Below, piece by piece: positions 35,001 to 51,649 of a DNA stretch of 64,000 bases. The translations under genes were made by a program, and so were the position numbers. The notes under the pieces are model-generated. The model did not search any database and was not told the origin of the DNA. It worked only from the letters and a program-made list of their open reading frames with translations. This stretch comes from Thermodesulfobacteriota bacterium (GTDB lineage: Bacteria > Desulfobacterota > WTBG01 > CAIYCZ01 > CAIRTM01). The stretch lies in the NCBI GenBank assembly GCA_028282925.1, contig JANQGV010000091.1, positions 4,748 through 68,747 of the forward strand, read 5' to 3'. The stretch's first letter is position 1. Each line of letters begins with the position of its first letter.

Positions 35001-38000
35001 AAGAGATAGCCCCGCCCCCCAGGAACTGTGCCCGCTGGTTGACATCAGTGCTGGTAATAAGGGTCCGGTTCGCTTTCTTCAAGGCCTGCAAAAAACTTCC
35101 TGATCTGCACGCATCATACACCACCGTTGTAGGACCACTGAAGCCGTCAAGCCACTGCGATAGCTCTCCTGCATGCAGCACCTCCTGTTTATTGAGGCGA
35201 AATATCTCCGGGCCGCCGTGGTCTATCAAGCACACCACCAGACTGTCTGCATCACCGGACCACTCGGTCAAGGCCGTATGCAGGCTCTCACGACTGGCAA
35301 TGCCGTCAACATCGTCGAACTCACCGTTATTGTCCTGATCCCACTGGATATCCGGCGATAAATAACAGATTGTATCCTTGGTAAAGCCCTGGTACAACAA
35401 AGCCCGGTAGGCAAACTTAGCGTTCATGCTGGTGGCATTCCACAAGGCATCCCCCTCGTGGCTGCGCCCGGCAACAATGACTGCCTTGCTGTTTGGAGTC
35501 TGCAAGTGGTTGAACACCTGGATTCGATCATTACCGGTATCGGCCACATATATCCGTCCGTCATTACCGATGCAAAGCCCTCCGGGATCATTAAACTGCC
35601 CCGGACTGGTGCCATAACTGCCAAATGACTGGATAAAATCCCCGGAGGCACTGAACTTCTGAATGCGGTGATTACCACTATCGGCTACATAAAGTACCAC
35701 GGTACCCGACTCATTATCGGTCGCTACACCGCGAGGGGCATTGAACTCTCCTGCGCTGCTTCCATTGACACCCCACTGACCAATATACTCCCCGGCAGAG
35801 CTAAACTTCTGGATACGATGATTGTCAGTATCTGCAACATACACTCTGCCTTCTACATCTACTGCTATGCCGTGGGGATTGCGAAAGTAGCCAGCACCGA
35901 TACCTTGGCCTCCCCATACTGTTTCAGTGTCATTAAAATTAGGGTTAAATTTCACTACATAGTTATTACCCCTATCGACAACATATATATTCCCCTGGTC
36001 ATCAAAAGCTATGCCATAGGGTTTATAAAAAAACTTATACACATCGTCTTTAATATATTTATTTACATACGCAAGAAAATTTCCGTCACCAGCATATTTG
36101 GTAACCTGATTAAAATCGGCACTCGCAGCATAAATATCGCCTTGCGTGTCAGCAGCAATTCCCTGAACAAACTTGGTATCATTTCTGGACCACTCGAATA
36201 AAAACGCTCCGTCTGCACCTAATTTCTGTATACGGTGGTTATCTGTATCGGCTACATAAACATAACCCTTTTCATCAACAGTAACGCTTTCCGGTGATAT
36301 AAACTCTCCGCCGCGTGCCCCTCGATTTGAAAGTGCAAAAACATAATCAAGTTCGACATCGACATCATGAAACTTCTGAATACGGTTATTCCACACATCT
36401 GCCACATAGACATACCCGTCGGCATCCACTGCTATACCGGCAGGGGTGCACAATGAATCCTGACCGGTACCACATGCCCCCATAACTGCAACAGACACAA
36501 AACCGGAACCGTCATCACGGAGCTTAACTATACGATGATTTTCACTGTCGGTGACATATATCTCGCTATCTAAACCAACTGCAATGCCAAGGGGAGAGTC
36601 AAGCTGCGAGCCCCCATCTCCCTCACTTCCCCACGCCATCAGAAACGTACCATCATCATGAAACATCTGGATACGGTGATTATAACGGTCGACCACATAG
36701 ATGTGTCCGTTTCTATCTGATGCGATACCCCGAGGCAAATCAAACTCACCACTGCCATTACCGTATGAACCCCACATGGCAATCAATTGACCATCGGGAT
36801 TAAACTTTACAATCCGGTCATTAAAGGTGTCTGCAACATAAATATCGCCCCCTTGGTCAACAGCAACTCCTTGAGGATAACTCAACGTGTCATTATCCGA
36901 TATCTGTTCACAGATCTCTAATATAAAATTACCATTGGGATCGAATTTTTGTATCCTGTGGTTATCGGTATCGGCCACATAAACATTCCCGTACAGGTCC
37001 GTTGCTATGCCGGTCGGATAGGAAAACTGTCCGTGTCCTGCCCCCGGGCCTCCCCAGGCCGCAATAAACTTTCCGCCGGGCGAAAACTTCTGAACACCGT
37101 GTTTGCCGGTATCGGCCACATACAGATTACCCCAAGGATCCACTGCCACACCGGCCGGATGCTCAAAATACCAAGGATTCTTCAATGATGGCCAAATACT
37201 CCTGCAGGTATAGTGAAATGCCAGGGGAACATTTAAAGCTGAATCCTCTCCGTTCTGCCCTTTAACTTCTGAAAGAACAATTATATCTCCACCAGTGCCA
37301 TCCGGCAAAGACTGACTGTCGCTACCGTTGCCCCCTGCCCCATCCTGCGGCATCCGGGTTGTATCATTTTCCGGATAAGTCGGGGACATACTAACAATGT
37401 CATCTTCAAGCAAATCCGTTGTCAATGATGAGAGCATTTGATCATGGATAAATTCATCCATTCCCATATCAACAACAGCCACACCGTCATCATCTCCGTC
37501 AACGATCCTTGGATCACCGTCAGGATCGGTCGACAAAAGATGCGCGACTTCATTACTGCCGGCATCGATACATGGCGAAAAAGAAGTCAGATGCAAATCT
37601 CCGTAGTCATCATCATCAGTGCCCCATTCTTCATCTGCGCCTGGATCAGGTGCGCGAACAAACAACGGATCTTTGCGGATATTACCTTTTCCATCCGCAC
37701 TGCCGTCCTGATTGCCAAACCCGCTTTGATCTATATTACAAAAACCCACTGAAGAATAATCAGTATAAGTGTAAATCTGAGGACCATTATCTACTGATGC
37801 ATTATTAGGGAGGACATTCCCCCACATGACACAATTCGAAATAACATCATCAGTACAGTTGTCAGTCATAATCCCACCACCATAACTTGCCCTATTACCA
37901 GACAGTGTGCAGTTGGCCATGTTGACTATAGTGTTATTGTTATATAAGCCGCCGCCTATATAAGCCTTATTGCCGGAAAAAAATGAATTGTTTATAAAAG

Positions 38001-39720
38001 GAGTGGAATTATAATTGCTCATCCCACCACCAAAAGTTACGGCCTGGTTGCCCAAAAAGGCACAATTATTAATACCGGGGAAAGAGCCATACGTATTCAA
38101 CATCCCGCCTGCCTGATGAGCGCTGTTATTATAAAAAACACAGCCGGCTATTTCAGGAGAGGCCTTGGAGTTTAAAATTCCACCGGCGCTATCACCGGCC
38201 ACATTACTGGAAAAATTCGCATTGGTTATGATAAGGTCGGATTCCCGGTTATATATTCCACCACCCTTAAACACGGCTCTATTGCCGTAAAAAACCGTAT
38301 TGTTTATTGTAGGAGAGGAATATTGTATGTTTAATGCTCCACCATATTCAGCCGTGTTGTCAAAAAAATCGCATTTTGTGATCAGGGGAGAGGAATAATA
38401 GTTAAAAATCCCTCCCCCATATCTAGCAGTGTCATTTTCTGTGAAGGTACAATTGTCAATTACCGGAGAACTTTCTCTTAAATAGATACCTGCACCGGAG
38501 CCTTCAGCATAATTCTTTTCAAAATTGCAGTTACTGATTAGCGTATTGCTATTATAGAGATAAACAGCTCCACCATATAAACCAACACTGTTCTCTGTAA
38601 AAGTGCAATTACTGATGGTTGGCATGGAATTATAATTACATATGCCACCACCATTTTCTACAGCTTGATTTCCCCAAAAGGTACAGTTACTAATGTTGGA
38701 ATACGAGTCACTAGTATTTAAAATCCCGCCTGCCTGCTTAGCACTATTGTTAGAAATAATACAATCGGTTATTTCAGGTGAGGACTTTGAGTTTAATATT
38801 CCGCCGGCACTGACATCGGCTTTGTTGTCCGAAAAAATTGTGTCGGTTATAATACAATCGGATTCCCGGTTGAATATTCCTCCACCTTTAAAAACAGCAC
38901 TATTGCCTGAAATAATGGAATTTTTTATGATTGGAGAGGAATATTGGATATTTAATGCCCCACCGTATTCAGCCGTGTTGTCAAAAAATTTACATTTTGT
39001 AATAGTGGGAGAGGAATAATAATTAAACAATCCCCCACCATATTTAGCAGTATCATTTTCTGTGAAGGTACAATTGTCAATTACCGGGGCGCTTCCCCTT
39101 AAATAGATAGCTGCACCAGAACCTTCAGCATAATTATTATCAAAATTGCAGTTGTTGATTTGCGCATTACTATCTTTGAGGTAAAGAGCTCCACCATATA
39201 AATCAACACTGTTGTCTGTAAAAGTGCAATTGCTGATAACCGGAGAAGCATAAACGATAAAAGCACCACCACCATCTGCCATTTGGGAACAACCATCATC
39301 CCCATTGCGGATGGTCAACCCGTCGACGGTGGCATTGGCGGTTATATACAGTAAGTTATAGACCGTGTACTGGCCGTCAAGTACGGTTTCATAACGCGTA
39401 ACGTCCCGATCGTCCCACTCCGGGTAGGCAAAATCAGACGGGAACCCGCCGTAGATATGCACGGCCTTGTCAATCTCGATACTTGCCGACAGTGGATAGC
39501 GTCCCTCCTTGACCAGTATTAGATCATCAACTTGGGCAGCATCTATTGCCTCCTGCAAGCTTTTGAAGGCATCCGCCCAGGTAAAGCCGTACTGACTGGA
39601 AGAATCAACCCCGCCGTCTACATACCAGGTAGCGGCATGAAGGGGTGACAGGGGTAGAGCGGTAAAGAAGACAACAACTGCTGTAAAGTGAAATAGCCAG
39701 GAAGTAATTAGATTTTTCAT
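32032..39720 (-). CDS. Giant secreted/surface multidomain protein, paralog 3 (about 2562 aa from MKNLITSW) with the same architecture, including an internal tandem duplication of Pmp-like repeats
   Basis: The ORF spans 32032-39798. I place the start at 39720, which puts the signal peptide (MKNLITSWLFHFTAVVVFFTALPLSPLHA) at the N-terminus. C13 dyad LIDHGGPE/VYDACRSGSF, then degenerate LVGQGGP/IYDADYSGSF. Conserved C-terminal domain. Confidence 0.9.
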   Translation of the reverse strand: MKNLITSWLFHFTAVVVFFTALPLSPLHAATWYVDGGVDSSSQYGFTWADAFKSLQEAIDAAQVDDLILVKEGRYPLSASIEIDKAVHIYGGFPSDFAYPEWDDRDVTRYETVLDGQYTVYNLLYITANATVDGLTIRNGDDGCSQMADGGGAFIVYASPVISNCTFTDNSVDLYGGALYLKDSNAQINNCNFDNNYAEGSGAAIYLRGSAPVIDNCTFTENDTAKYGGGLFNYYSSPTITKCKFFDNTAEYGGALNIQYSSPIIKNSIISGNSAVFKGGGIFNRESDCIITDTIFSDNKADVSAGGILNSKSSPEITDCIISNNSAKQAGGILNTSDSYSNISNCTFWGNQAVENGGGICNYNSMPTISNCTFTENSVGLYGGAVYLYNSNTLISNCNFEKNYAEGSGAGIYLRESSPVIDNCTFTENDTARYGGGIFNYYSSPLITKCDFFDNTAEYGGALNIQYSSPTINNTVFYGNRAVFKGGGIYNRESDLIITNANFSSNVAGDSAGGILNSKASPEIAGCVFYNNSAHQAGGMLNTYGSFPGINNCAFLGNQAVTFGGGMSNYNSTPFINNSFFSGNKAYIGGGLYNNNTIVNMANCTLSGNRASYGGGIMTDNCTDDVISNCVMWGNVLPNNASVDNGPQIYTYTDYSSVGFCNIDQSGFGNQDGSADGKGNIRKDPLFVRAPDPGADEEWGTDDDDYGDLHLTSFSPCIDAGSNEVAHLLSTDPDGDPRIVDGDDDGVAVVDMGMDEFIHDQMLSSLTTDLLEDDIVSMSPTYPENDTTRMPQDGAGGNGSDSQSLPDGTGGDIIVLSEVKGQNGEDSALNVPLAFHYTCRSIWPSLKNPWYFEHPAGVAVDPWGNLYVADTGKHGVQKFSPGGKFIAAWGGPGAGHGQFSYPTGIATDLYGNVYVADTDNHRIQKFDPNGNFILEICEQISDNDTLSYPQGVAVDQGGDIYVADTFNDRIVKFNPDGQLIAMWGSYGNGSGEFDLPRGIASDRNGHIYVVDRYNHRIQMFHDDGTFLMAWGSEGDGGSQLDSPLGIAVGLDSEIYVTDSENHRIVKLRDDGSGFVSVAVMGACGTGQDSLCTPAGIAVDADGYVYVADVWNNRIQKFHDVDVELDYVFALSNRGARGGEFISPESVTVDEKGYVYVADTDNHRIQKLGADGAFLFEWSRNDTKFVQGIAADTQGDIYAASADFNQVTKYAGDGNFLAYVNKYIKDDVYKFFYKPYGIAFDDQGNIYVVDRGNNYVVKFNPNFNDTETVWGGQGIGAGYFRNPHGIAVDVEGRVYVADTDNHRIQKFSSAGEYIGQWGVNGSSAGEFNAPRGVATDNESGTVVLYVADSGNHRIQKFSASGDFIQSFGSYGTSPGQFNDPGGLCIGNDGRIYVADTGNDRIQVFNHLQTPNSKAVIVAGRSHEGDALWNATSMNAKFAYRALLYQGFTKDTICYLSPDIQWDQDNNGEFDDVDGIASRESLHTALTEWSGDADSLVVCLIDHGGPEIFRLNKQEVLHAGELSQWLDGFSGPTTVVYDACRSGSFLQALKKANRTLITSTDVNQRAQFLGGGAISFSNYFWNHIFNGVPVREAMEKAGTAVESTFHNQTPLSEPSDISADLVIGYGTSISGSAPEIAEIYPDTQTITSGTTATIRANRITDPDSATLSGVWAVVLPPGFSEDSIDNPMVELPFFELQEVDCDGYSGKCYEGSFDKFTIDGEYQLAVYAMDDQGNTSVPLVSEVKVESPLTQKAIIVAGTKGGDGFVEKGVDLAYHALKTQGYKDGVITVLEPDGSASISSLRGALEAARNSTHDLVLYLVGQGGPLEFHINDSEILSVSELDSWLDELQANMDGVLTVIYDADYSGSFIPLLTPPENKKRIVITSTAADEPVYYGSRGLISFSTFFWSRVYNGEKVHDAFSYAKKASNCLNKSCRPQTPSLNDNGNGIANEYADGLLAMNYKIGIGWNFADDGPMVGSVFAEAEENNRISIQAGVTGTGEVKRVWAVVTPIDSCPGGDEAVEEVELFYDIASETATGLFEPTSSQDYKITVYARDADNNTSRPFETKVYLGQGGLCSAGTADAYEEDNSKEEARVIVVNAREPQEHSFCSARDEDWVKFYGLEGEYYSIVTDNLGENSLPVIELYNEQLDMQRSKVPEEGGAVYLDWLCPEDGVYYVRLWNYLLYDEDGQDTVTTGYSLRVYNPYWPDFLVLMSGEVKDGTTRQPIDGAVITTDGGGAAISEQGRYELYQYPGRWTLEARSSGYQWYREYITVGTGSMVMQKDISMLPLSTNTSTTTSIDSSSSSPPATTTTVPVETTSSTTTTIDDGNLATTTTTVAPPPEPLEIVSTPRAMAFVDEQYTYTVEVSGGAAVTCELQSAPAGMVIDKTTGTITWTPALEQLGNHRVVVCVTDDLGRKVSQEFTVRVTLSCVLTQVLNNNRQDLDLLRSYRDSRLYRSAAGRGLLYLYYANGPEIYAILAKQPGLMTSVRKTVRELLPELKKGAEKNEPIGLPEDTRRKARRLLKDIRQKASPGLKKSLALVLRRLEDVGFLQDIGIKHSNTGRK

Positions 39721-39999: not shown

Positions 40000-41349
40000 T
40001 TAGAAATAATAGATCAAAGAGGTCATAAAGAGGTGTTGGGTCACATCGGCATCGGTGCCGGGCAGGTTTACCAGCACATCACCCTGCACATCGTTGCCGC
40101 GGCGATACTGGTAGGCACAATCAAAAACCAGGTTACCGGCCGTAAAGCCGGTGCCCAAGGAAAATCCCCAGAAATCTTCCGGGCTCTTTTCCGATGGTTC
40201 GGGATCGTAAAACAGCCCGCACCGCAATGGTATGATGGTTTTCGGCAGGATAAAGAGGTATTCGGCCCCCAGCCGTACCTGGTGGGTCGCACGGGTGGGG
40301 CTTTCGTGTGAGGGCTTGCCGGTCAGCGGGTTCAGTCGGTTGCCGCTGCCGTCTTCCAGCCGGAAATGAGACCACTCGGTCCGGTAGATATCAAATGAAA
40401 TGGTCAGCCGGTCGGTAAACCGCATCGCAACTCCAAGACCGTAGGAGAGCGGCATTTCAAGCTCAACGTCTTCATCAATCCGCATTGAACCCGTTGCGGG
40501 CAAGCCGCCGATCATGCGGCTGGTGGTTACAACCTCACGCTCATGCTCCATGTCTGCCGTGAACGGGGTTTTAACCACACCGCCGACGGTCAAAAAGCTG
40601 TTTATATGCCACAGAAAACCGATATGCATGTTAAAGCCGGAGAAACCGTAGTAGCGGTCACGGTCGGTGGATTTCACCGTGGACGAAAGTCTGCCGTCGC
40701 GGTAGGTGGCACCTTTAATGACCAGATCCGACTCCCAGCCGTTACTCCAGAAAAGGTTGTCGGTCCAGATATTACAGGTAACACCGAGAGCAAAGTCCGG
40801 GGTTACCTCAACGGCAAAGGCCGGTGACAGAGCGCTAAGCTTACCCTTCTGCCTAAAGTCGACTTTCTGGTCATACTGCAGGGGCGGATCCGTGGAGCGT
40901 TCAGTCAGATCGGTGCGGATATCGCGGTCGAACTCATACAGGCGCTGATAGTTGAGGGACACAATCATATTCCGCTCTAAAAACTCAAACGGAAAGGCGA
41001 TGCTGAAATAGTTGAGATCCTTGACAAGGGTTTTCTGCATGCCGGACACTTCCGGGTAGGAGCGGGACGAAAAATCATCGCGGCGGCTGAAATGCGAAAA
41101 GGCAAACGAAACTTCGGGTTGCATCAACTGGGTCAGACCGGCCGGGTTCCACGACGCGGCAGTGGCATCATCGGCAACGGCGATAAAGGCACCCCCCATA
41201 CCCACGGCCCGGGCACCTGAACCCACCGGGTTGGGCGACGATGCACTGATGGCCTTTTGGGGTGTCTGCTGGGCCGCGGCCCCCTGGCACAGGGCAATAC
41301 CGAAACCCGTCAGAAAACATATATATATAAATATCTTTTTCACAGGCAT
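40000..41349 (-). CDS. FadL/TodX-family outer-membrane beta-barrel transport protein
   Basis: 449-aa ORF with a signal peptide. N-terminal hatch motif GARAVGMGGAFIAVADDATAASWNPAGL (FadL-type G.GA.ADDA.....NPA). Alternating amphipathic beta-strands, terminal aromatic residue (YYF). Last gene of the three-gene operon. Confidence 0.75.
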   Translation of the reverse strand: MPVKKIFIYICFLTGFGIALCQGAAAQQTPQKAISASSPNPVGSGARAVGMGGAFIAVADDATAASWNPAGLTQLMQPEVSFAFSHFSRRDDFSSRSYPEVSGMQKTLVKDLNYFSIAFPFEFLERNMIVSLNYQRLYEFDRDIRTDLTERSTDPPLQYDQKVDFRQKGKLSALSPAFAVEVTPDFALGVTCNIWTDNLFWSNGWESDLVIKGATYRDGRLSSTVKSTDRDRYYGFSGFNMHIGFLWHINSFLTVGGVVKTPFTADMEHEREVVTTSRMIGGLPATGSMRIDEDVELEMPLSYGLGVAMRFTDRLTISFDIYRTEWSHFRLEDGSGNRLNPLTGKPSHESPTRATHQVRLGAEYLFILPKTIIPLRCGLFYDPEPSEKSPEDFWGFSLGTGFTAGNLVFDCAYQYRRGNDVQGDVLVNLPGTDADVTQHLFMTSLIYYF

Positions 41350-41360
41350 AGAACCGTCAG

Positions 41361-43355
41361 CTATTTTGTAATAATGTTGTCGCCTTTCACCATTCCTCTC
41401 TCGGTAAAAAGCTTTTCAATATCCGTCCGGGCGGATTCCACTTTAACCTCCCCGGCGGACAGCAGGGCCTGGATAATGGTATCGCTGCCAAGATCAACCC
41501 CTTTACCGGCAGGTTCCTTCGGCTCTTCATCGCTGTAAGCCAGGAAACGCATGCCAGGGCGGATGCCGTCGCTACTGCCAAGGTCGATACGTGCATAAGA
41601 ACTCGCCAGTTCTTCAACACGGCCTTCCCTGAGCGGCAGGTGTTCTTTAAATTTGCGTGCCAGGCGGTCCATATTTTCCCATACGTCCGCCCAGCGGTCG
41701 CCCTCCCAGTACACATCCATTTCAGCCAGCACGCGCTGGGTTTCAACATCAACCAGCCGGGCATCAACACCCACCGATACTCCCGAGGCGGTAATAGCAC
41801 CCTGAAGTACCGTGTCCGCACCTATTCTGATGCCCATCTCTGCCGCTTTTTCCTGTGCAGCCAGTGCAGTCACATCCCCAGACTCTTTGTGCAAAACTTC
41901 ATCAACTTTTCCGGCCTCAAAAACATTAAAGCGCTTCTGGTTTGTAAAGGCTGTCATCAGCACACTCCGGACAGTATCCTGCAGCGCACGTTCTGCAGGT
42001 TTCTTTTCAGCAAACGGTAAAACCGCCATCGACAGACGAGAATTTATGCGCCGCACACGGGGCACCACCCGCTCGACCATAACTTCTTTTTCCACAGTAC
42101 GCCCCGACGAATCGACGTGGGAAACCCTGACCGTATTGTTTTTATCAACCAGTTTTATCCGCTTGCTGAATGCCACAGCAACAGAGATACTGCGGTCCTG
42201 TTTTTTTAAAAACGCCCTGAAATCGTTCCGCGCTTTTGCGGCCAGCAACGGCTGCCCATTGAGATCCAACTCGCGGACACCTTTCGCGGCAGCGACCAGC
42301 CCCTGTACGCACAAGCTGCTTTTATAGCTCACCTGGTGGTCTTTAAGACCTGCAAGATCGATCACCGGACTGCCCCGACCACTAGCAACCGGTATCACAC
42401 CGGTGGTAACATTGCCCACCGTATCCCGGACGCTGAAGTGAACACCCTCCGGTCCAACGGCAAAGCTCTCATGGAAAGAACCCGCGGCCGTATTCTTAAA
42501 AGCAAGGGTGCGGCCGTTGATGGTCAGATCTGCAATACCCGATTCATCATATACCCTGCCCGAGATCGAAACAACACCGGCAGAATCCGGTGCACAGGCA
42601 AGCATGACCAGCGGCCCCTGACGGTCGACAAACACTTTCAATTCCACCGCCGTGGACGTTTTACCGAGAATGTCCTCCGAGCGGATCGTAATAAGGTTTT
42701 TTCCCTGCTGCAAAACAAATTCTTCTGCAAAAGAAACTTCACTCCGGGAAAGTTCCAGGGTGGAAGCCGCGTTGTTGACAATAACGTTTTTAACGAAATA
42801 GTTGTCACGGGCCGTTCCCCTGACGGTCACTGAAAAATCATTAGTGCTGTACTGCGGCGGTGGAAAGGTAACCGCAACCGACGGGGGTTTTGTATCAAGT
42901 CCTGCCCGCTCCAGCCACGCTTTGCGGGCCAGGTTCAGGTAATACTTTGCCCGGGCGGTTTCAACCGACGCCAGCGACGTCTCCAGTGCCTGGATTGCCT
43001 GCTGATACTTCCCAAGGTTGTACCAGGCAATCCCAAGCTCGCGCCGGGGAAAGTAGTCGATAACATGCATGCCGTAGGTACGCGCCCGGCGCTGATCATT
43101 GGAACGCCTGCCAATGGCAACCAGGTAATCGGCTGCCGCATCTTCCCAGTACCCGCCCTCAGTGTACGAGCACCCACGCAAATAATAGTTATACCAGCGC
43201 GATTTAAAAAGACCATCGGTCTTTCCGTAGAGTTCGCCGTCCTTTTCATAGACCCTGCCCTTTTTCACCGCACACCCCGTAAACAGATACGGCAGGCTGC
43301 ACAGCACAATAAGGCCGGCAATATATACAATGACTTTTTTTTCTTTATGCATCAT
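41361..43355 (-). CDS. Lipoprotein with N-terminal TPR-like region, central Ig-like beta domains and C-terminal CsgG/LpoB/FlgO-like (TolB-N-like) domain
   Basis: 664-aa ORF with a lipobox (LFTGC). The C-terminal segment LSMAVLPFAEKK...VRSVLMTAFTNQKRFNVFE...GDVTALAAQEKAAEMGIRIGADTVLQGAI...VDARLVDVETQRVLA fits the CsgG/LpoB-like pattern. It begins 26 nt after the CHAT gene and ends 11 nt before the OMP gene. Confidence 0.7.
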   Translation of the reverse strand: MMHKEKKVIVYIAGLIVLCSLPYLFTGCAVKKGRVYEKDGELYGKTDGLFKSRWYNYYLRGCSYTEGGYWEDAAADYLVAIGRRSNDQRRARTYGMHVIDYFPRRELGIAWYNLGKYQQAIQALETSLASVETARAKYYLNLARKAWLERAGLDTKPPSVAVTFPPPQYSTNDFSVTVRGTARDNYFVKNVIVNNAASTLELSRSEVSFAEEFVLQQGKNLITIRSEDILGKTSTAVELKVFVDRQGPLVMLACAPDSAGVVSISGRVYDESGIADLTINGRTLAFKNTAAGSFHESFAVGPEGVHFSVRDTVGNVTTGVIPVASGRGSPVIDLAGLKDHQVSYKSSLCVQGLVAAAKGVRELDLNGQPLLAAKARNDFRAFLKKQDRSISVAVAFSKRIKLVDKNNTVRVSHVDSSGRTVEKEVMVERVVPRVRRINSRLSMAVLPFAEKKPAERALQDTVRSVLMTAFTNQKRFNVFEAGKVDEVLHKESGDVTALAAQEKAAEMGIRIGADTVLQGAITASGVSVGVDARLVDVETQRVLAEMDVYWEGDRWADVWENMDRLARKFKEHLPLREGRVEELASSYARIDLGSSDGIRPGMRFLAYSDEEPKEPAGKGVDLGSDTIIQALLSAGEVKVESARTDIEKLFTERGMVKGDNIITK

Positions 43356-43381
43356 ATGTTGGTATCAAACAATGCAGCACG

Positions 43382-46081
43382 CTACAGCCAGTTTCCCATG
43401 AGAATAAACGGCGACCAGAAAAAAGGGTGCGCATAGGGTTTCGCCGGGTCCGTGCCGGTCGACTCCATCCCCGCCTGCTCCTCAATGCGCTCAATCTGCA
43501 TCCCGCGCATTGCCGGTTGTCTTTCGCTGTAATCAAAGCGCCCGTTAATAAGATTCATCTGTGCCAGCCGCAATGCTTCGGCTTTGGTCCGGCCGGGCTG
43601 CTCGCTGTGCAGACGATAAAAGTCCTGCATTAATATTCCGGTACTCTGGTCCGCCACCGGCAGCAGGGTAGCCATCACGCCCTCTGCCCCAAGATCCTGT
43701 GACAGTGTTCCGAAGCACTCAATTTCACTGCCGTTTGCCTCGGCACCGCCAACGGCGGTATTACAGGCCGAAAGGGCCATAAGCTCCACCCCGCCAAAAT
43801 CATATCCACCGCCCATAAGTCGCGACAAAGGCAGCCTGGAGCCGTCGCCCAGCACCAGATACGATTGCCGGTGTGTTCCCGGGTTAAGCTTGAAATGTCC
43901 GGCGATATGCACAGCCGGAAATGATGCCGCCAAAACCTCTTTAAGCGATCCTTCCGAGAACAGCTCGTCAAGATAAATCACCCCCGGCAAAACGCCGTCA
44001 GGGTCTTCCCGGTCACGGCGAATAATACCTTCCAGCTCTTGCGGCACATGCGGCAGGGGATCGAACTCGCGAACCGCCTTACTCAGCCCGAAACCACCTA
44101 CCCGCCATTGAGTCCCGGGCGCAGCCATATCTCGCATCCCCGCAGCGGCCGTATAGACGGCCAGTTGGTACCGCTCCACAACATATCGCTCTCCATCGTG
44201 CAATGCCGCCACCGGCAAATAGCGCAGCGGCCCGTCAAGTGACAGCATCAGTGTTTCCGCCCCGGCCTGTTTCAGGTCCCCGGCAATCGGACCCAGCACA
44301 ATCCGGTACAGCTCAGCTGCCTTTTGCAGGTGAGTACTCCGCGGGTCTTGAAGAACCGTTCGATAATCAACAATCTTACGCTTGAGGTCCCGGGCGCTAA
44401 CCGTCACATCCCGGCATAGTTGCCGGTCGGCGGTAGTCAACAGAATGCGCAGTTTTTCATCCGTCAGCACATAATGAATAATAACGGCACCGTGTCCCAG
44501 GTCCCGTAGGGTACGCTGCCATTGCGGCTGAGTATCCCGGCTTTCCGGACTGGCCTGCGCAAGCTGCTTTCCGTCGGCACTGTCGAACTCCTCGATATGT
44601 TCGTCCAGATAGCGCCGTGCGGTTTTGCGTGCGACTTTCAGTTCCTTTTCAAGCTGCCGGTATCGTTTCACTTCCTGAGCTGTTCGGTCCTGCGGTAAAA
44701 TGGCTTCTAAAAGCCTCGATTTACCGGCTAGTCCGGCTATTTTCTCATAGAGCGTGCGGTAGCGCTGCACCCAGGAGTGCTCGGCTTCGCTATAGCCGGC
44801 CATTGTTGAACGTACGTCGGAATGTGCTGCCGTCCGGCGCAAAAAGTCAAAATACTCCTCCTCTTTCTGCATGCGCAGCACCTGCTGCGCCTCGGGAAAC
44901 CTGCCTAGGTCGATAAGCACGTCGGCCAGAAACCGGTACACGTGCATTTTTGTTTTCATAAACGATGACTGAAAGTGCCGTTCCAGGCTCCTGATTTCAA
45001 AACGCAATTGCTGGATGGTGTTAACGGCCGCCTTGCCGAAAAAAACGGCCGCCTGCCGGTTGCCCTGCCGGTTCAGCACAAACGCCAGGTTAAACTGTAC
45101 CCGCCAGAGCAACTCCGGGAGCCGGGTCTCCTGCGCAATCACCAGCGCACGCTCATACAGCACACGCGCCTGCCCGTAATCCCCCTGCGCAAAACGGACC
45201 TCACCAAGGTTATTCAGCCGGACCGCCACCAGCCAATGATTCGCGCCATATTCCGCCTCGTCGATTGAAAGGGCCCTCTTATAGAGTTTTTCGGCTTCCA
45301 GGAACTCATTCACTGCATAATAGAGGCCGGCCCGGTTATTCAACACGGTGGCCGTCTCCGGATGGTCCGGGCCATAGGCTTTGCCCGTGATGGAAAGAGC
45401 CCTGTCATACATCCTGCGGGCCGCGGCATAGTTACCAACCACTTTATAAAAACGGGCAACATTACTCAGCACAGTGGCCGTTTCAGGATGGTTTGGTCCG
45501 TGAACCTGTTCGCTGCTGTTCAATGCGCGCACATACAGGGTTTCGGCCCCGTCATAATCACCCAACGCGTGAAGAACCTCTGCCAGGTTGTTGAGCAACG
45601 TTGCCTTCCGCACCGCATGCCCCACACCCCCGTTTTTCTCGTAGTTTGCCAGGGCATGCTCATACAGGGATTTTGCCTCGGGATACTCGCCCAGGGCAAA
45701 AACGGTTCCCGCCAGATTGGCAAGGTCTCGGGCAACCACCGTATGTTCAGGACCCATGGTCTGCATATCGATGGACAGCGCCCGGTCATACAGTTCCCGG
45801 GCCTGCTCGTAGTTCCCCCGTTCATAATGAAATCGGGCAAAACCGTTCAGAACGACGGCAACTTCCGGATGGCCGGAACCGTACCTGCTTTCCGTGCCAG
45901 CCAGCAATTCCTGATAGTCTTTTTCTGAAAGAACCGGTCCCTTCAGCGTTTTCCGCCCGAGGTCCCGGGCGGCCTTATCCGCCCGAAAAAAACCGCACCC
46001 GCACAGAACAACTGCCAGGATACACACTGTCAGGCAGGCTGAAATAGTTTTATTTTTTTGCACCAACCGTACTATGTTCAT
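43382..46081 (-). CDS. TPR-repeat CHAT-domain protein (caspase-like clan CD peptidase), predicted lipoprotein
   Basis: The ORF spans 43382-46108 and starts on GTG. I place the start at the ATG at 46081 (MNIVRLVQKNKTISACLTVCILAVVLCGCG, a signal peptide with a lipobox). At least 6 TPR_10/12-like repeats (YERGNYEQARELYDRALSI...). C-terminal CHAT domain with a His/Cys dyad (HIAGHF ... LSACNTAVGG) and a typical ending (HPFFWSPFILMGNWL). Confidence 0.85.
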   Translation of the reverse strand: MNIVRLVQKNKTISACLTVCILAVVLCGCGFFRADKAARDLGRKTLKGPVLSEKDYQELLAGTESRYGSGHPEVAVVLNGFARFHYERGNYEQARELYDRALSIDMQTMGPEHTVVARDLANLAGTVFALGEYPEAKSLYEHALANYEKNGGVGHAVRKATLLNNLAEVLHALGDYDGAETLYVRALNSSEQVHGPNHPETATVLSNVARFYKVVGNYAAARRMYDRALSITGKAYGPDHPETATVLNNRAGLYYAVNEFLEAEKLYKRALSIDEAEYGANHWLVAVRLNNLGEVRFAQGDYGQARVLYERALVIAQETRLPELLWRVQFNLAFVLNRQGNRQAAVFFGKAAVNTIQQLRFEIRSLERHFQSSFMKTKMHVYRFLADVLIDLGRFPEAQQVLRMQKEEEYFDFLRRTAAHSDVRSTMAGYSEAEHSWVQRYRTLYEKIAGLAGKSRLLEAILPQDRTAQEVKRYRQLEKELKVARKTARRYLDEHIEEFDSADGKQLAQASPESRDTQPQWQRTLRDLGHGAVIIHYVLTDEKLRILLTTADRQLCRDVTVSARDLKRKIVDYRTVLQDPRSTHLQKAAELYRIVLGPIAGDLKQAGAETLMLSLDGPLRYLPVAALHDGERYVVERYQLAVYTAAAGMRDMAAPGTQWRVGGFGLSKAVREFDPLPHVPQELEGIIRRDREDPDGVLPGVIYLDELFSEGSLKEVLAASFPAVHIAGHFKLNPGTHRQSYLVLGDGSRLPLSRLMGGGYDFGGVELMALSACNTAVGGAEANGSEIECFGTLSQDLGAEGVMATLLPVADQSTGILMQDFYRLHSEQPGRTKAEALRLAQMNLINGRFDYSERQPAMRGMQIERIEEQAGMESTGTDPAKPYAHPFFWSPFILMGNWL

Positions 46082-46453
46082 ATAGTTAGCTGTGTCGTTT
46101 AAAAGCACAAACAGTGCCCCGGTTTCGCCTCCCGCTCCTTCCCATCAAGATCACCGTAGAGGAATGGAACTACCGGAAAACGATAACCTGCTGATATTGC
46201 AACACTTTCAAGGAATCCCCTGATGAAAATAACAAAAGGCGCCGTGGTCGTCAAGCGGTGCCCCTTGAGTGTACAAGTATACCCTTTTGTTCAGATCAGG
46301 TGTAGCTGTTTTATTCCTCCCTTAATAATACGTAAACGTTCGAGATTTCTTACATAAAATCCTTATGACCTCAATCCCGGCACAATTGGAAAAGATAGGC
46401 GCTCTCCGAGAGTCTTCTTGACGTTCACTGGGGCAAAACATACTATTAACGGT

Positions 46454-47263
46454 ATGACAGCACGAAAAGTTCATAGTATCAGTATTGTGTATATAGCGTT
46501 CTGCATGCTCTATGCCTGCGATGCTCCCCGGGGTAGCATCGCGCACTATACCTATACGGTGCGGGCCGTTTACAACCACGACCCGCAAGCATTTACCCAG
46601 GGTCTGCAATACGTCGACGGAACACTCTTTGAAAGCACCGGCCGATACGGACAATCAACTTTGCGGGAGGTAGCACTTGAAAGTGGGGATATTATCCGGA
46701 AAGTCTCTCTGGCGAATTATTTTTTCGGGGAGGGAATGACGGTCATAGATGCAACCATATACCAGCTGACCTGGCAGTCCGGCATATGCCTTGTCTATGA
46801 CCGGGAAACATTTGAAGAGCAAGCCCGATTCATCTATGATACCGTAGGCTGGGGATTGACCGATAACGGAACTCACCTGATCATGAGCGATGGATCAAAC
46901 AGGCTTTATTACCGAGACCCCGGCACCTTTGCAATAACCCGGACCGTTTCAGTAACACTGCGCGGAGCACCGCTGACACAACTGAACGAGCTTGAATACA
47001 TCAACGGCACCATCTTCGCCAACATCTGGCAAACCGACCTCATAGCCCTGATTGATCCCGCCTCCGGAAAAGTTACCGGACTTGCCGACCTTACCGGGCT
47101 CCTGGAATCCTATGCCGCAACACATGGAACCAATGTACTCAACGGCATTGCATATAATTCTGAAACCGGACGCCTCCTTGTCACCGGCAAACTCTGGCCT
47201 AACCTTTTTGAAATCGAGCTGATTGAACAGACGATCAGTTCTGGACAAAATCCACACCTGTGA
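46454..47263 (+). CDS. Glutaminyl-peptide cyclotransferase (bacterial/plant-type glutamine cyclotransferase, beta-propeller), predicted lipoprotein
   Basis: The ORF spans 46418-47263. I place the start at 46454 (MTARKVHSISIVYIAFCMLYAC). Glutamine cyclotransferase (PF05096-like) pattern: YTVRAVYNHDPQAFTQGLQY.DGTLFESTGRYGQS.LREV...GEG.T....IYQLTWQ.G...YD..TF. Confidence 0.8.
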   Translation: MTARKVHSISIVYIAFCMLYACDAPRGSIAHYTYTVRAVYNHDPQAFTQGLQYVDGTLFESTGRYGQSTLREVALESGDIIRKVSLANYFFGEGMTVIDATIYQLTWQSGICLVYDRETFEEQARFIYDTVGWGLTDNGTHLIMSDGSNRLYYRDPGTFAITRTVSVTLRGAPLTQLNELEYINGTIFANIWQTDLIALIDPASGKVTGLADLTGLLESYAATHGTNVLNGIAYNSETGRLLVTGKLWPNLFEIELIEQTISSGQNPHL

Positions 47264-47320
47264 TATACATAAGTACAAATACCTGCAACAGTAATCCCTA
47301 TTCCCTGACAGAGAAATACT

Positions 47321-49651
47321 ATGCGCACCAAAAAAAGCATTTGCGTGTGGATATTCGGCCTCCTTCTCCTTGCGCCCATCCATGGCGATTGTGCGGAGAA
47401 TGAAAAAATCGGGATTCTGTTTATGGGTTCCGGTATGGACGAATCGTACAGGCCGGACTGGTTTATCGGATACCAGGAGCACCTGTACCCGATATTCCCA
47501 CCGGGCTTCATGGCCGGAGGCCCGCTTGAGGGCGACTCCTGTTACAGCCTGATCCATTATGCAAACGAAGCCGAAGCCGCGGTCTGCAGCCAGGCCACCG
47601 GCGAGGCCGTAGATATCGGAACCCCGATTGACATTTTCTGCAATGAATATACAAAGCTCGATGAGTATCCCGTCCATTCAATCTTTGACCACCGCCTGTT
47701 CGGTGAAAATGGATTTCTCAACACCTGCTACCCCGGCATCGTTCCGTACTTTATCGGAGCCGGGCACAGCACCACCGATCCCGTAACGGGGAAAGAAATC
47801 ATAGGGCCCCATGTCGACGACCCCCACGGACCCGGCATCGGCATAGCAGACTTTTCGGAACAGATTGCCTTTGCACATATCGACTACCATTACTATCTGG
47901 TTCCGGATTACCTGAGCCCCTACCGCAAACAATACCTGCGCTGGCTGTACGGCAACAACATCCCCTCTTCATACGGTTATCCGCCCGAAGCCAGTGAAGC
48001 AATAAACATCCTTGATGAACTCTATAAAGCACTCTCAGGTACCGGCACAACCGTAGTCGCACGACACGGCTGGGTTTCATACATGAAAAACCACGACCCC
48101 TATGGCAATGACCTCTTCATTCCCGACAGTCTCCAGACCGCCCTGGAAGAGTTGATCAATGACGAAAAGGTTGATCGTATCATTGTGCAGGGCTCGGGAA
48201 GTCTCTACGCCAACATCACCAACTGGGGCTACTGCTGGAGGAATGCCGACAACACCGGCTTGAGCCGGCTTGACAATGCCACCTACTTCGACTGCATAAC
48301 CAATATTGACGACGGCTACGGACCCGGCACCAGTGAAGAGCTGGGAGCCCTGCTGACGAACAAGCCATGGCACCAGTATGCTTCACCCTACCCCGTTATC
48401 AAGCATATGGCCGAGGCGATCGATCCGGCCGTTACAATGACCTTTGCCCCGGCATACGGCGACTATCCGGAATTTGACGAAGCGGTCCTGGCAATGCTCA
48501 GGTATACGATAGAAAAATATCAGATCAGTTCCGACGCGACTTTAAAAGTCATTACCGGAACCCACGGATACGGCTCGGGCTATATGAACGGCGGAGACTG
48601 CGATGCTTACTTTGTCGTCGATGACCGATTAGATGCACGTGTTACGTCCCGGCTTGATGCGTATCTGGCCACCGCCTGGAACGGAAAATATTCCGTGGCA
48701 GCTGCTGAAAATGAGTTTTCCCAACCCTCCGAAGAGGGCGCGTTTTACGATCCCCCAAGCAGCGACAAGCCCATGGGCGATATCATCAGTACAGGCGAGC
48801 ACATCGATCTGGCAATAAACGGTCGGTATGTTAATGAACTGGGGCAGGTGGTTGACAACGGAAACAACAATTACGATTACGTTATTGCCATTCCCATCAT
48901 CTGGGATGCTGAAAATGTTGATACCATTTCCCACTTTCGGCACGAGACCCTCGGCAACCACGAACTGCAAACCGTTTCCGGCAGCCGGGCATGGATACGC
49001 CAGGGCGTATCGAAAGACGGCGATGAGTATCAGGCCGGTATTGACTATGATGATGAGTACTTTACCGTAGCCGTAATGGATGCAAGCGGATGGGAAAGCA
49101 CGCCCGCTGGTACATGGCTGCTGGACAGACCTGCTCCGGTTAAAAAGGGTAGTTCGGAAAACCCCACCACGGTTATCCTCACCGGCACCATGCTTTCCGC
49201 AGGAAACAGCCGGGTACGCACCAGCCTGACTGCAGCTGCCGTGGCAAGCATCAGGGACGCAATTGATAATCCTTCTGCCGGCGGATATCTTGATGCCACG
49301 TGTGAAGCACAGGCGCTTAATATGGTTGTTGATTTCTCTGCCGAAGCTCACAACGGATCGGTTGTACTTTCCTGGAAAACCCTGAGTGAAGTCGACAGCC
49401 GGGGATTTGCCCTTTACCGCGCCGAATCCTCATTCGGTCCCTACGAAAAAGTAAACAGTTCTCCTGTCAGTCCCACCGGTAATGCAACCTCCGCTTCTTC
49501 GTACACCTATACCGACAACTCGCTTACCAATCTCACCCCGTATTATTATCGCCTTGAGCATTCTTTTTCAGACACGTCTGCCACCTACGGGCCGATAGCG
49601 GCAACCCCCTGTATAATCAAGGGTTTCCCGGCTCAGCAAACCGCCCATTAA
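47321..49651 (+). CDS. Large secreted protein with a duplicated chelatase-like (CbiX/CbiK-like?) N-terminal region and a C-terminal fibronectin-III-like domain; function unknown
   Basis: 776-aa ORF with a signal peptide (MRTKKSICVWIFGLLLLAPIHG). Segments resembling the class II chelatase fold (KIGILFMGSG.., KVITGTHGYGSGY). C-terminal FN3-like pattern (VVLSWKTLSEVDSRGFALYRAE...YYYRLEH). The CbiX-like assignment is tentative. Confidence 0.65.
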   Translation: MRTKKSICVWIFGLLLLAPIHGDCAENEKIGILFMGSGMDESYRPDWFIGYQEHLYPIFPPGFMAGGPLEGDSCYSLIHYANEAEAAVCSQATGEAVDIGTPIDIFCNEYTKLDEYPVHSIFDHRLFGENGFLNTCYPGIVPYFIGAGHSTTDPVTGKEIIGPHVDDPHGPGIGIADFSEQIAFAHIDYHYYLVPDYLSPYRKQYLRWLYGNNIPSSYGYPPEASEAINILDELYKALSGTGTTVVARHGWVSYMKNHDPYGNDLFIPDSLQTALEELINDEKVDRIIVQGSGSLYANITNWGYCWRNADNTGLSRLDNATYFDCITNIDDGYGPGTSEELGALLTNKPWHQYASPYPVIKHMAEAIDPAVTMTFAPAYGDYPEFDEAVLAMLRYTIEKYQISSDATLKVITGTHGYGSGYMNGGDCDAYFVVDDRLDARVTSRLDAYLATAWNGKYSVAAAENEFSQPSEEGAFYDPPSSDKPMGDIISTGEHIDLAINGRYVNELGQVVDNGNNNYDYVIAIPIIWDAENVDTISHFRHETLGNHELQTVSGSRAWIRQGVSKDGDEYQAGIDYDDEYFTVAVMDASGWESTPAGTWLLDRPAPVKKGSSENPTTVILTGTMLSAGNSRVRTSLTAAAVASIRDAIDNPSAGGYLDATCEAQALNMVVDFSAEAHNGSVVLSWKTLSEVDSRGFALYRAESSFGPYEKVNSSPVSPTGNATSASSYTYTDNSLTNLTPYYYRLEHSFSDTSATYGPIAATPCIIKGFPAQQTAH

Positions 49652-50297: not shown

Positions 50298-50894
50298 ATG
50301 ACAGGCAGAGAACTCAATAAAATCCGTCGCATAGAAGATATATTCGAGGCAGCACTTCAGTGCTTCAATGAAGCAGGTTTTTCCTCCACCACCATGGAAA
50401 GCATTGCGGCCAAAGCCAATATCAGCAAGGGCGGGATGTACCACTATTTCAGCTCAAAAAAAGATCTTTTTCTGAACCTCTTCCGCTACCGGATGAACAA
50501 GTACTTCGATGAGATGAAGTCCTATCTTGATAAAGATGATTCTCCGGAACAGCGAATCCGTACTCTGGTTAAGAAAGCCGGACAGATTCTAAAACAAAAT
50601 GAAGATTTCTACCGGTTTTGCATAATCTTCCTTTCTCAGGGTGTCCGTAATAAAGAAATACGCACCATCATGACCGATTTCTACAAAGATTCAGTGGGCA
50701 CATTTAAAAGCCTTTTGGAAGAAGGCATTGAAAAGGGGCATTTTAAAAAAATCGATACAGAAAAAGCTGCTCGTGCTATTTACTTTCTGGTTATGGGGGT
50801 CTATTTCACCTATTTTTCGGTGGACACGGATTTCGATATCATCGACCAGCATTCTTTTCATATTAATAATATACTTAAATCAATTAAAATTTAA
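50298..50894 (+). CDS. TetR/AcrR family transcriptional regulator
   Basis: 198-aa ORF with an N-terminal TetR helix-turn-helix (FSSTTMESIAAKANISKGGMYHYFSSKKDLF). Confidence 0.85.
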   Translation: MTGRELNKIRRIEDIFEAALQCFNEAGFSSTTMESIAAKANISKGGMYHYFSSKKDLFLNLFRYRMNKYFDEMKSYLDKDDSPEQRIRTLVKKAGQILKQNEDFYRFCIIFLSQGVRNKEIRTIMTDFYKDSVGTFKSLLEEGIEKGHFKKIDTEKAARAIYFLVMGVYFTYFSVDTDFDIIDQHSFHINNILKSIKI

Positions 50895-50932
50895 ATTAAT
50901 TAAAAAGCATATACTGTTTTTTTTAACCTATT

Positions 50933-50950
50933 TTCGACCGACTGGTCGGA
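50933..50950. promoter_or_regulatory. Candidate TetR operator, copy 2, 25 nt upstream of the corrinoid-protein ATG
   Basis: Identical TTCGACCGACTGGTCGGA 18-mer, followed by an AGGGAGG ribosome-binding site and the ATG at 50975. Confidence 0.45.
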
Positions 50951-50974
50951 TTATAAAACAAGGGAGGAAATACC

Positions 50975-51649
50975 ATGCAAACATCAGACTTAATCAACAA
51001 CCTTGAGCATTCAATTATTGAGGGAGATGTGGACAATGCGGAAAAGTGGGCATTACAGGCCCTTGACGAAAAAGCAGACATACCTCAGGCAATAAACAAC
51101 GGACTCATAAAAGGGATCAAGCAGGTCGGCGATGCCTTCGGCAATGGTGAAATTTTCCTGCCGGATCTCATCCTGAGCAGCGAAGCCATGAAAATCGCCT
51201 CTGATATTTTTGAAAACGAACTGCGAAAAACAGGCCAGAACATTCAAACCTCCGGCGGTAAAATTGTTATCGGTACGGTTAAAGGCGATATACACGATAT
51301 CGGCAAAACCCTCGTATCCACCCTCTTTAAAGGAGCCGGTTTCACGGTTATCGACCTGGGCGTTGATGTGCCGACCGACGATTTCATTGCAGCGGTTCGC
51401 CGGCACCAGCCGCACATTCTGGGCCTTTCCTCCCTGCTCACCACCAGTGCCATTGAACAGAAAAACGTCATCGATGCCCTCGATCACGCCGGGCTACGCT
51501 CACAGGTCAAAATAATGGTGGGAGGTGGAGCAATAACCGAACAATGGTCACAGGAAATAGGTGCCGATGCCTACAGCGGCGATGCACGTGAAGCGGTCGA
51601 CTGCGGCTGCAGACTGCTTGACTCTTTACAGGGAGAATATCATGCATAA
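50975..51649 (+). CDS. Corrinoid (cobalamin)-binding methyltransferase partner protein (MtbC/MttC/MtgC-like)
   Basis: 224-aa ORF with an N-terminal B12-binding_2 cap and a Rossmann B12-binding domain carrying the DxHxxG motif (VKGDIHDIGKTLV). Confidence 0.85.
   Translation: MQTSDLINNLEHSIIEGDVDNAEKWALQALDEKADIPQAINNGLIKGIKQVGDAFGNGEIFLPDLILSSEAMKIASDIFENELRKTGQNIQTSGGKIVIGTVKGDIHDIGKTLVSTLFKGAGFTVIDLGVDVPTDDFIAAVRRHQPHILGLSSLLTTSAIEQKNVIDALDHAGLRSQVKIMVGGGAITEQWSQEIGADAYSGDAREAVDCGCRLLDSLQGEYHA

Follow-up and report, generated by a model that had tools for sequence, protein, structure and literature searches.

A TPR-CHAT protease, a lipoprotein and a FadL-family barrel of Thermodesulfobacteriota as the possible envelope arm of a protease-gated ECF sigma factor switch

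Classical pathways leading from the bacterial envelope to a sigma factor include DegS/RseA/RseB/RseP-sigmaE, FecA/FecR/FecI and the sensor made of RcsF and an outer-membrane protein (OMP). Caspase-like proteases of the CHAT type have also been connected with sigma factors of the extracytoplasmic function (ECF) class. For example, in DdvA of Myxococcus xanthus an anti-sigma factor and a periplasmic TPR-CHAT are joined in one protein, for which autoproteolysis and then RseP cleavage have been proposed; it has been described as the only characterised protein of this kind and as narrowly distributed, and DdvA/DdvS controls a CBASS-CRISPR island (PMC11506125). Another example is the type III-E craspase, in which the TPR-CHAT protein Csx29 (with Cas7-11) has been demonstrated to cleave Csx30, the protein sequestering the ECF-like CASP-sigma (PMC10028731). 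The locus described here lies in a stretch of 64,000 nucleotides (nt) of a Thermodesulfobacteriota bacterium (assembly GCA_028282925.1, contig JANQGV010000091.1, positions 4,748 to 68,747, forward strand), the whole of which is called the window, and consists of three adjacent genes coding for a TPR-CHAT protease, a lipoprotein (designated MID) and a barrel protein of the FadL family. This trio is likely to belong to an ECF signalling module. On balance, it appears to be the envelope arm of an ECF switch that regulates itself and has five parts, namely sigma factor, anti-sigma factor, CHAT protease, MID and FadL/BamG-like barrel; that the protease itself cleaves the anti-sigma factor is an evenly poised proposal. 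The five genes of the window are the following.

43382 to 46081, minus strand: TPR-CHAT protease, 899 aa from the likely ATG (46081); the mechanical open reading frame (ORF) extends to a GTG at 46108 and has 908 aa
41361 to 43355, minus strand: MID lipoprotein, 664 aa
40000 to 41349, minus strand: FadL-family barrel, 449 aa
14384 to 15079, plus strand: ECF sigma factor with Sigma70_r2 and r4_2 matches; translation may actually begin at the Met near 14483
15154 to 16062, plus strand: anti-sigma factor with zf-HC2 (H-x3-C-x2-C), one transmembrane helix (about 123-141) and, in the periplasm, a DUF4384 domain

The first-pass annotation of this DNA had described three co-oriented genes with spacings of 26 nt (CHAT to MID) and 11 nt (MID to barrel), upstream of giant genes on the same strand, and the ORF coordinates agree exactly with this arrangement; the sigma and anti-sigma genes, absent from that annotation, are found at the far end of the giants and convergent with them. 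Because MID is the most distinctive protein of the trio, it was taken as the anchor for searches in other genomes. It is represented by 81 clusters in a 90%-identity database, and its profile (E <= 1e-30) gives 2,643 matches among 50%-identity representatives, more than 100 of them full-length and some of them partial matches to Ig-repeat giants. Relatives have been found in 440 species-representative genomes, mostly of Thermodesulfobacteriota (Desulfobacterales, Syntrophobacteraceae, Geobacteraceae) and Nitrospirota, and also in Schekmanbacteria, Nitrospinaceae and Entotheonella. The ORFs of 80 loci (numbered L002, L004 and so on) were labelled by iterated hidden Markov models and cross-checked with precomputed Pfam labels, and partners within 7-10 kb of MID were counted in the 36 loci having at least 7 kb on both flanks. 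A CHAT gene lies within 7 kb of MID in 31 of these 36 loci, a FadL-like gene also in 31, and both together in 28; an ECF sigma factor with a zf-HC2 anti-sigma factor is present in 20, a CarboxypepD_reg-type protein in 14-17 and a Peptidase_C13 (legumain/NHL) giant in 8-10. The most constant additional partner of the trio is, in consequence of these counts, the sigma/anti-sigma pair and not a giant, and the value of 20/36 is a lower bound since the pair of the window itself sits 24 kb away. Gene orders vary (SIG-ASIG-CHAT-MID-FADL, FADL-MID-SIG-ASIG-CHAT, CHAT-MID-x-FADL, CHAT-MID-FADL, FADL-MID-CHAT), the strand being shared almost always. As linkage is kept despite this shuffling, the trio is a real functional unit, the natural extent of which is five genes and not three; a scattering of the three genes over related genomes, the outcome that the first-pass annotation had named as fatal to its proposal, was not seen. 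No published description of the module was found in the searchable literature.

The window contains what characterises an ECF system: the sigma factor has regions 2 and 4, the anti-sigma factor has a zinc finger, and predicted promoters of ECF type are placed for autoregulation. The sigma factor is related to those of loci L002, L006 and L007 with E = 1e-63, and the anti-sigma factor, with orthologues in the same three loci and in L091, matches DUF4384 (1.9e-17) and, weakly, zf-HC2. The protease matches Pfam CHAT (PF12770) with 1e-45 (156.7 bits, cutoff 24) and TPR_12 with 4e-61, five TPR_12 stretches preceding the C-terminal CHAT domain; the Pfam scan gave no Peptidase_C25 match, CHAT being matched instead. 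This domain and the dyad His738/Cys782 in the numbering of the GTG ORF (His729/Cys773 counted from the ATG) place the protein in the caspase-like CHAT group of clan CD, and the dyad is invariant among module CHAT domains (56/56 and 55/55). A single N-terminal hydrophobic segment ends in a lipobox (...AVVLCG/C). Most relatives are built in another way: 36 of the 55 module CHAT proteins have the order Guanylate_cyc-CHAT-transmembrane helix-TPR-CsgG/FlgT_C, with an N-terminal class III nucleotide cyclase according to Pfam, 14 (CHAT-transmembrane helix-...) differ only by the lack of the cyclase, and five, to which the window's own is added, are exported proteins of the type signal peptide-TPR-CHAT. 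Accordingly, 50/55 have no signal peptide and carry CHAT N-terminal to a single transmembrane helix, and in 47/55 the periplasmic domain is homologous to the C-terminus of MID. The periplasm-facing CHAT with TPR repeats of the first-pass annotation thus holds for the window clade, where the protein is exported and has a lipobox, and fails for the 50 homologous modules with a cytoplasmic CHAT. Located after the cyclase and devoid of a signal peptide, this majority CHAT is cytoplasmic and therefore cannot be a PorU-like periplasmic sortase.

The compartment of the protease changes together with that of the anti-sigma factor. All anti-sigma factors detected alongside a cytoplasmic CHAT (27-28 loci) are soluble (maximum 19-residue hydropathy of 0.66-1.62); in 5/5 loci of the window clade and in the window, an exported CHAT is accompanied by an anti-sigma factor with a transmembrane helix (hydropathy of 2.04-2.34) followed by a periplasmic domain, and no case with the two proteins in different compartments exists among those loci. 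Given that the topologies switch together and that His and Cys are invariant, the simplest reading of the sequences is that CHAT would act on the anti-sigma factor. The origin of the window-type protease seems to be different from that of the majority form. Desulfonema limicola and Betaproteobacteria have TPR-CHAT proteins, with no MID, FadL or sigma neighbours, that share 43-47% identity with its CHAT half, and the majority module CHAT matches it with E = 1e-4 to 1e-10 only. Because it is closer to these unlinked TPR-CHAT proteins than to the majority form, the protease of the window clade is, as judged from sequence, a replacement from another CHAT lineage with the opposite topology, a CHAT protease having been retained. 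A metagenome scan with the CHAT half gave one locus, of unrelated context.

With regard to possible cleavage sites, in about 34 loci (e.g., L022:12924-13628) the soluble anti-sigma factors have in common P(V/I)RGS, located after the zinc finger and before a conserved beta-rich domain at the C-terminus, and T/V-RG occurs just past the membrane helix in three of the four closest transmembrane anti-sigma factors (L002, L006, L007). Cleavage after the Arg of either motif is a candidate. Locus L007, of the window clade, has after the module (14408-20733) a DUF4384-like ORF, then a CHASE2-nucleotide cyclase and then an ABC exporter with Peptidase_C39 and cNMP binding, so cyclic-nucleotide signalling genes reappear there although the CHAT has no fused cyclase.

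The similarity to DdvA/DdvS consists in a periplasmic TPR-CHAT with a His-Cys dyad that is coupled to a zinc-binding anti-sigma factor and an ECF sigma factor, with cleavage, intramembrane proteolysis and sigma release as the proposed sequence of events. In contrast to DdvA, the protease and the anti-sigma factor of the window are coded by separate genes 27 kb apart, the ectodomain is DUF4384, two outer-membrane partners (the lipoprotein and the FadL-like barrel) are regarded as obligatory, CHAT is cytoplasmic behind a cyclase in most members, the putative regulon consists of surface proteins and not of CBASS/CRISPR genes, and the module is present in hundreds of species. The craspase is resembled by the majority form, in which a cytoplasmic CHAT is found with a soluble inhibitor of an ECF-type sigma factor that it would cleave. 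However, this form has no CRISPR effector or RNA trigger, its activation would come from a periplasmic or outer-membrane sensor through the transmembrane helix, and its anti-sigma factor is a zf-HC2 protein and not Csx30. That the TPR-CHAT of the window is not a CRISPR-associated Craspase, as noted in the first pass, agrees with its signal peptide and with the lack of cas genes in the window. The module is distinct from both DdvA and the craspase in its separate components, its obligatory barrel and lipoprotein, cyclase-CHAT as the usual transducer and its wide distribution.

Evidence for the sigma factor acting on these genes comes from promoters. The four closest loci have in common ATACG-N13-TTTCTTACA, and the promoter emerged from the reverse strand of a 10-mer shared by these loci; on that strand the element reads TGTAAGAAA-N13-CGTAT, that is, the shape of an ECF promoter with a -35 TGTAAG, a 16-nt spacer and a -10 CGTAT. 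In distant lineages the same element stands at the sigma/anti-sigma junction with the -10 CGTCTA. Coding conservation was considered as the reason for the 9-mer enrichment and was rejected, since the element sits at the sigma/anti-sigma junction with a -10 CGTCT/CGTAT at fixed distance. A position weight matrix trained on 15 sites, none of them from the window, detects four sites in the window with 21.9-26.9 bits, and none of at least 18 bits in 40 shuffles of it.

46323 to 46354, minus strand: ECF-type promoter reading TGTAAGAAA-N13-CGTAT, with the CHAT gene about 240 nt downstream; 26.9 bits, which equals the best training site
15068 to 15099, plus strand: ECF-type promoter preceding the anti-sigma gene, located at the 3' end of the sigma gene; 21.9 bits, 18 other loci also having a site in this position
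14138 to 14169, minus strand: ECF-type promoter toward a 76-aa ORF (13838 to 14068, minus strand); 24.4 bits
16554 to 16585, minus strand: ECF-type promoter-like site just past the stop of giant 3, antisense toward the anti-sigma gene; 21.9 bits

In 1.3 Mb of loci, 42 sites of the form TGTAAG-N16-CGT(A/C)T have been found, standing in front of the anti-sigma gene (18), FadL-MID (4), the CHAT operon (three loci, L002, L006 and L007) and assorted secreted proteins. In L002, a site precedes a gene run that ends in a C13 giant, and L091 has a site in front of FadL, which is followed by a 151-aa gene and an NHL/C13 giant. The 76-aa ORF of the window, Cys-rich and divergent from the sigma gene, has no Pfam match and no relatives in the loci; downstream of the site at 16554 to 16585 there are only short unconserved ORFs, and this site may drive an antisense or small RNA. 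A blind enumeration of bipartite motifs in 40 sigma-upstream regions gave nothing interpretable above shuffles. Words GGGGCA upstream of the giants, CHAT and the glutaminyl cyclase were rejected as a common motif, 54 being found and 52 expected, and those near the giants belonging to paralogous leader regions. L084 has, downstream of the module (10840-12977), five near-identical copies of a sequence resembling the ECF promoter (TGAAAGAAATTC.GCGCTGC.GCGTATA) inside 2.1 kb; the spacing of three is about 170 nt, and the arrangement looks like a repeated element carrying the promoter.

The two outer-membrane partners are less easily named than the protease. MID has a lipobox (...LFTG/C), the Cys of which is conserved in at least 90% of the family, and Pfam matches to Glucodextran_B/Ig (1.6e-10), to a short TPR and, weakly, to CsgG, FlgO, LpoB and TolB_N. 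Its AlphaFold2 model (pLDDT 87.6, pTM 0.82) contains a helical TPR-like N-terminal domain, three to four Ig-like domains and two further domains, one of alpha/beta type resembling CsgG/LpoB and the other, at the C-terminus, of beta type resembling FlgT_C/TsaP; the best matches of the model in the PDB are FlgT of the flagellar H-ring (3w1e) and the Vibrio LPHT ring (8z5n), and the family profile also matches TsaP. FlgT and TsaP both form periplasmic rings around outer-membrane machines. Of the lipoprotein with a CsgG/LpoB-type domain that had been annotated at first, the lipoprotein is confirmed by the lipobox, but the domain match is weak and partial: CsgG reaches 21.6 bits (cutoff 20.8), confined to profile positions 33-104 of 210, profile comparison of LpoB and CsgG with MID gives E = 0.03-0.05 only, and the structure is nearest to FlgT. 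A CsgG curli channel was rejected as the identity of MID on the grounds of that partial Pfam match and of the alpha/beta and beta domains of the model, which fit FlgT best.

The barrel protein has a Sec signal and matches Toluene_X/FadL (PF03349) with 2e-16 (59.8 bits, cutoff 29.7); its relatives are 50-70% identical, and its N-terminal tail is highly conserved, G43-L72 being invariant. The model (AlphaFold2, pLDDT 82) is an all-beta barrel whose best fold match is BamG (9hiv_F, TM-score 0.70), followed by E. coli FadL, the TM-scores to FadL and BamG being 0.60-0.70. The assignment as a FadL-type 14-strand barrel is thus supported by a score above the gathering threshold and by the barrel fold predicted in the model, hydrophobic transport being only putative. 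In NCBIfam, the protein stays far below the cutoffs for BamG (NF053685, 63.9 vs 250 bits) and PorV/PorQ (NF033709, 55.9 vs 90 bits; NF033710, 23.8 vs 250 bits) and also below that for FadL; these matches are driven by the N-terminal motif, to which the PorV/PorQ alignment is limited (profile positions 10-59 of 326). No entry labelled PorV occurs among the 50 best listed PDB fold matches.

BamG is a FadL-family barrel that binds the N-terminus of a lipoprotein (PMC12611786), and the BamG-BamH pair may by analogy serve as a precedent for a barrel-lipoprotein pair, BamG being at the same time the best structural match of the barrel and FlgT (Vibrio H-ring) and TsaP (secretin-associated ring) being matched by the C-terminal half of MID. 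The context is different, since there is no BamA/BamD neighbourhood, BAM genes being absent from the window, nor are there flagellar or pilus genes. With the classical pathways the proposed system would have in common an outer-membrane reporter, a site-1 protease acting on the anti-sigma ectodomain and sigma autoregulation, and its lipoprotein-barrel pair would recall RcsF-OmpA/C/F. However, the protease is a caspase-like CHAT of clan CD and not a serine protease, the barrel is FadL/BamG-like and not a TonB-dependent transducer or a porin, and the lipoprotein is large, FlgT-like and rich in Ig domains. Regarding the barrel, a 99%-identical partial copy is filed under a 'Rhodospirillales bacterium' metagenome-assembled genome (MAG), all close relatives of the locus being Thermodesulfobacteriota, and this record is probably a binning error. 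A FadL-like barrel with an N-terminal CarboxypepD_reg domain is present at L010:10616-12823, and in other loci a small CarboxypepD_reg protein is coded between the MID and barrel genes.

Downstream of the barrel gene, three giant genes follow on the same strand, and a glutaminyl cyclase is transcribed away from the CHAT gene.

32032 to 39720, minus strand: giant 1, secreted, with beta-helix/PMP, NHL propellers, Peptidase_C13-like, He_PIG and a variant CFI-box C-terminal domain
24096 to 31777, minus strand: giant 2, with a GTG start at 31777 and a signal peptide
16700 to 23830, minus strand: giant 3
46418/46454 to 47263, plus strand: glutaminyl cyclase (Glu_cyclase_2, 3e-92), divergent from the CHAT operon

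All three giants carry beta-helix/PMP repeats, NHL propellers, a Peptidase_C13-like domain and He_PIG, and their C-terminal domain is a sub-threshold variant of CFI-box-CTERM (34.7 vs 40 bits in giant 1). The 279-nt AT-rich gap between the barrel gene and giant 1 contains no terminator-like site and no minus-strand sigma-70-like site; read-through from the barrel gene into the giants is plausible, and giant 1 is a probable co-transcribed output. Locus L091, the CHAT of which is 59% identical, has exactly the layout of the window, CHAT-MID-FadL-x-NHL/C13 giant, then a convergent DUF4384 anti-sigma and sigma pair; L002 has a C13 giant downstream, and L004 and L008 have other large secreted proteins directly after the barrel gene. 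Such proteins follow the barrel in every window-clade locus extending past it (the window, L002, L004, L008 and L091) but not in L007, whose barrel gene is frameshifted. From these layouts it follows that in the window clade the giants are inside the unit. NHL/C13 giants are also found near distant modules with cytoplasmic CHAT (L020, L053, L057) and are absent from many loci, e.g., L085; they probably constitute a regulated output of the module. In giant 2 the frame breaks about 60 codons in, near 31590, where one base seems to be missing in ...GTAATTTTG^TCAAAGAGG... as judged against giants 1 and 3; the gene is thus a pseudogene, or else a T/G run has been misassembled.

The first-pass annotation had proposed that the trio is a processing or export module for the giants, parallel to the type IX system, with CHAT as a PorU-like sortase of clan CD, the barrel as a PorV-like shuttle, MID as an anchor and the giants' C-terminal domain serving as sorting signal. 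Both systems have a cysteine peptidase of clan CD, a FadL-superfamily barrel with a common N-terminal motif (PorV/PorQ/BamG-type) and large surface proteins adjoining, and the exported CHAT of the window clade with its TPR peptide-binding domain, the secreted proteins after the barrel in the five loci mentioned and the recurrence of NHL/C13 giants near distant modules (8-10/36 loci) fit such a role. It is nevertheless improbable and was abandoned as a PorU/PorV-like mechanism. CHAT does not belong to the C25 peptidases and lies in the cytoplasm in 50/55 modules, many loci lack giants, the barrel falls below the PorV cutoffs, and an ECF pair is part of the unit; moreover, no Por_Secre_tail-type domain was found in giant 1 by NCBIfam and Pfam scans, so the presumed cargo lacks the type IX C-terminal domain, and no translocon or other type IX core gene (SprA/Sov, PorK/L/M/N) is among the ORFs of the window, in accordance with the first pass, which had seen no other type IX component. 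The giants' own C-terminal domain was rejected as a sorting signal, as it occurs near the module in only 2/84 loci; the expectation that the TPR-CHAT would always stand beside a FadL-like OMP and giants with this domain is borne out for the barrel in most MID loci and not for the domain, and related TPR-CHAT proteins are found without such neighbours. The glutaminyl cyclase, which had been brought in as a type IX element, is indeed divergent from the operon at 46454, but it occurs near the module in 0/84 loci and no ECF-type site points at it, so it was rejected as a member and its position is regarded as coincidental. Of the independent, undescribed surface-protein processing system then envisaged, what stands is a conserved and apparently undescribed envelope module linked to giants, and what falls is the processing/export mechanism.

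In the preferred ECF switch, the barrel and MID, the latter with a C-terminal half like the ring-formers FlgT and TsaP, would form an outer-membrane sensing complex, a signal from which would activate the caspase-like CHAT protease. This would cut the anti-sigma factor, in the window at the periplasmic linker or in the DUF4384 ectodomain and with subsequent intramembrane proteolysis, and the freed sigma factor would transcribe the trio together with the anti-sigma gene, the genes of the three giant surface proteins being reached by read-through. The roles of barrel and lipoprotein as sensor and of the giants as output are assigned from gene context and likeness of fold, and several observations weigh against the scheme. 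The promoters before the trio are just as compatible with a trio controlled by the sigma factor as with one acting on it. In the former case the trio would be an induced outer-membrane complex, serving for instance to take up hydrophobic compounds through a FadL channel or to remodel the envelope; CHAT would have substrates other than the anti-sigma factor, whose inactivation would take an unrelated route. ECF-type promoters directly upstream of FadL-MID and CHAT-MID-FadL operons, the FadL membership of the barrel by Pfam and fold, and the 9/36 well-flanked loci where CHAT and FadL are present with no sigma/anti-sigma pair within 7 kb speak for this alternative. It is still unlikely, since the majority CHAT is a typical transmembrane signalling protein, having a periplasmic sensor and a cytoplasmic cyclase/protease, since the match of compartments between CHAT and anti-sigma factor would be left unexplained, and since ECF systems commonly autoregulate their own sensing components. 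Also to be counted against the switch is that the compartment co-variation is essentially one evolutionary switch (one clade, about seven loci) and not 30 independent ones, and that the candidate cleavage motif reads only LRSG in the anti-sigma factor of the window. Finally, there is no ECF-type site directly upstream of the giants of the window, so their sigma dependence rests on the assumed read-through, and the periplasmic CHAT of the window clade could also act on the giants.

A wider proposal, made tentatively, is that of an undescribed pathway from the outer membrane to the cytoplasm, in which a BamG-like barrel and a FlgT-like ring lipoprotein would gate a CHAT protease, often fused to a cyclase, that destroys an anti-sigma factor. 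The pathway would be widespread in Thermodesulfobacteriota, Nitrospirota and neighbouring phyla, and the window clade would represent a swap to a periplasmic protease with a transmembrane anti-sigma factor and with giants under control. If this is true, caspase-like CHAT proteases would gate ECF sigma factors in general, beyond one Myxococcus protein and one CRISPR subtype, a FadL/BamG-like barrel with a FlgT-like lipoprotein would be a new type of outer-membrane sensor, and the control of giant surface proteins in uncultured sulfate reducers and Nitrospirota would have a first functional handle. The promoter consensus, the catalytic residues, the candidate cleavage motifs and the natural topology swap are testable items supplied by the analysis.

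Another arrangement is observed in L009 (6471-9933), from a Thermodesulfobacteriota MAG, where a TIR-transmembrane-CsgG-like protein stands instead of CHAT. A sigma-54-interaction AAA+ protein precedes it, and beside it are the MID and FadL pair as elsewhere and a beta-helix/PKD protein of 2028 aa; this points to a sensor with interchangeable cytoplasmic outputs. Such a swap of effectors would also suit an envelope-triggered defence or abortive infection system, in which the outer-membrane pair detects a phage or predator and activates interchangeable effectors (CHAT, nucleotide cyclase, TIR), the sigma factor being one of several outputs. The cyclase domains have weak PycC-like matches and DdvA/DdvS controls a CBASS-CRISPR island, in line with defence; yet this explanation is very improbable, for PADLOC gives no match to MID, barrel, sigma or anti-sigma factor and matches CHAT through its TPR region only, the neighbours are surface-protein and housekeeping genes and not defence genes, and the module is chromosomal, widespread and, in the trio, without composition anomaly (GC of 54-57%, the range across the window being 40-57%).

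The remaining genes of the window are housekeeping genes. A 776-aa secreted protein with no Pfam match is, together with the glutaminyl cyclase, divergent from the CHAT operon (46418-49651, plus strand), and was rejected as a module member, its sole match being a common Fn3-like C-terminal domain in L008 and no ECF-type site being directed toward its gene. A methylamine or betaine demethylation cluster occupies 50298-55629, where genes for a corrinoid protein, for one MttB-family and one MtrH-like methyltransferase and for a RACo activase come after a TetR gene. Lastly, a gene resembling ferredoxin-dependent bilin reductases is located at 60976-61683, which is unusual for a presumably non-phototrophic anaerobe.

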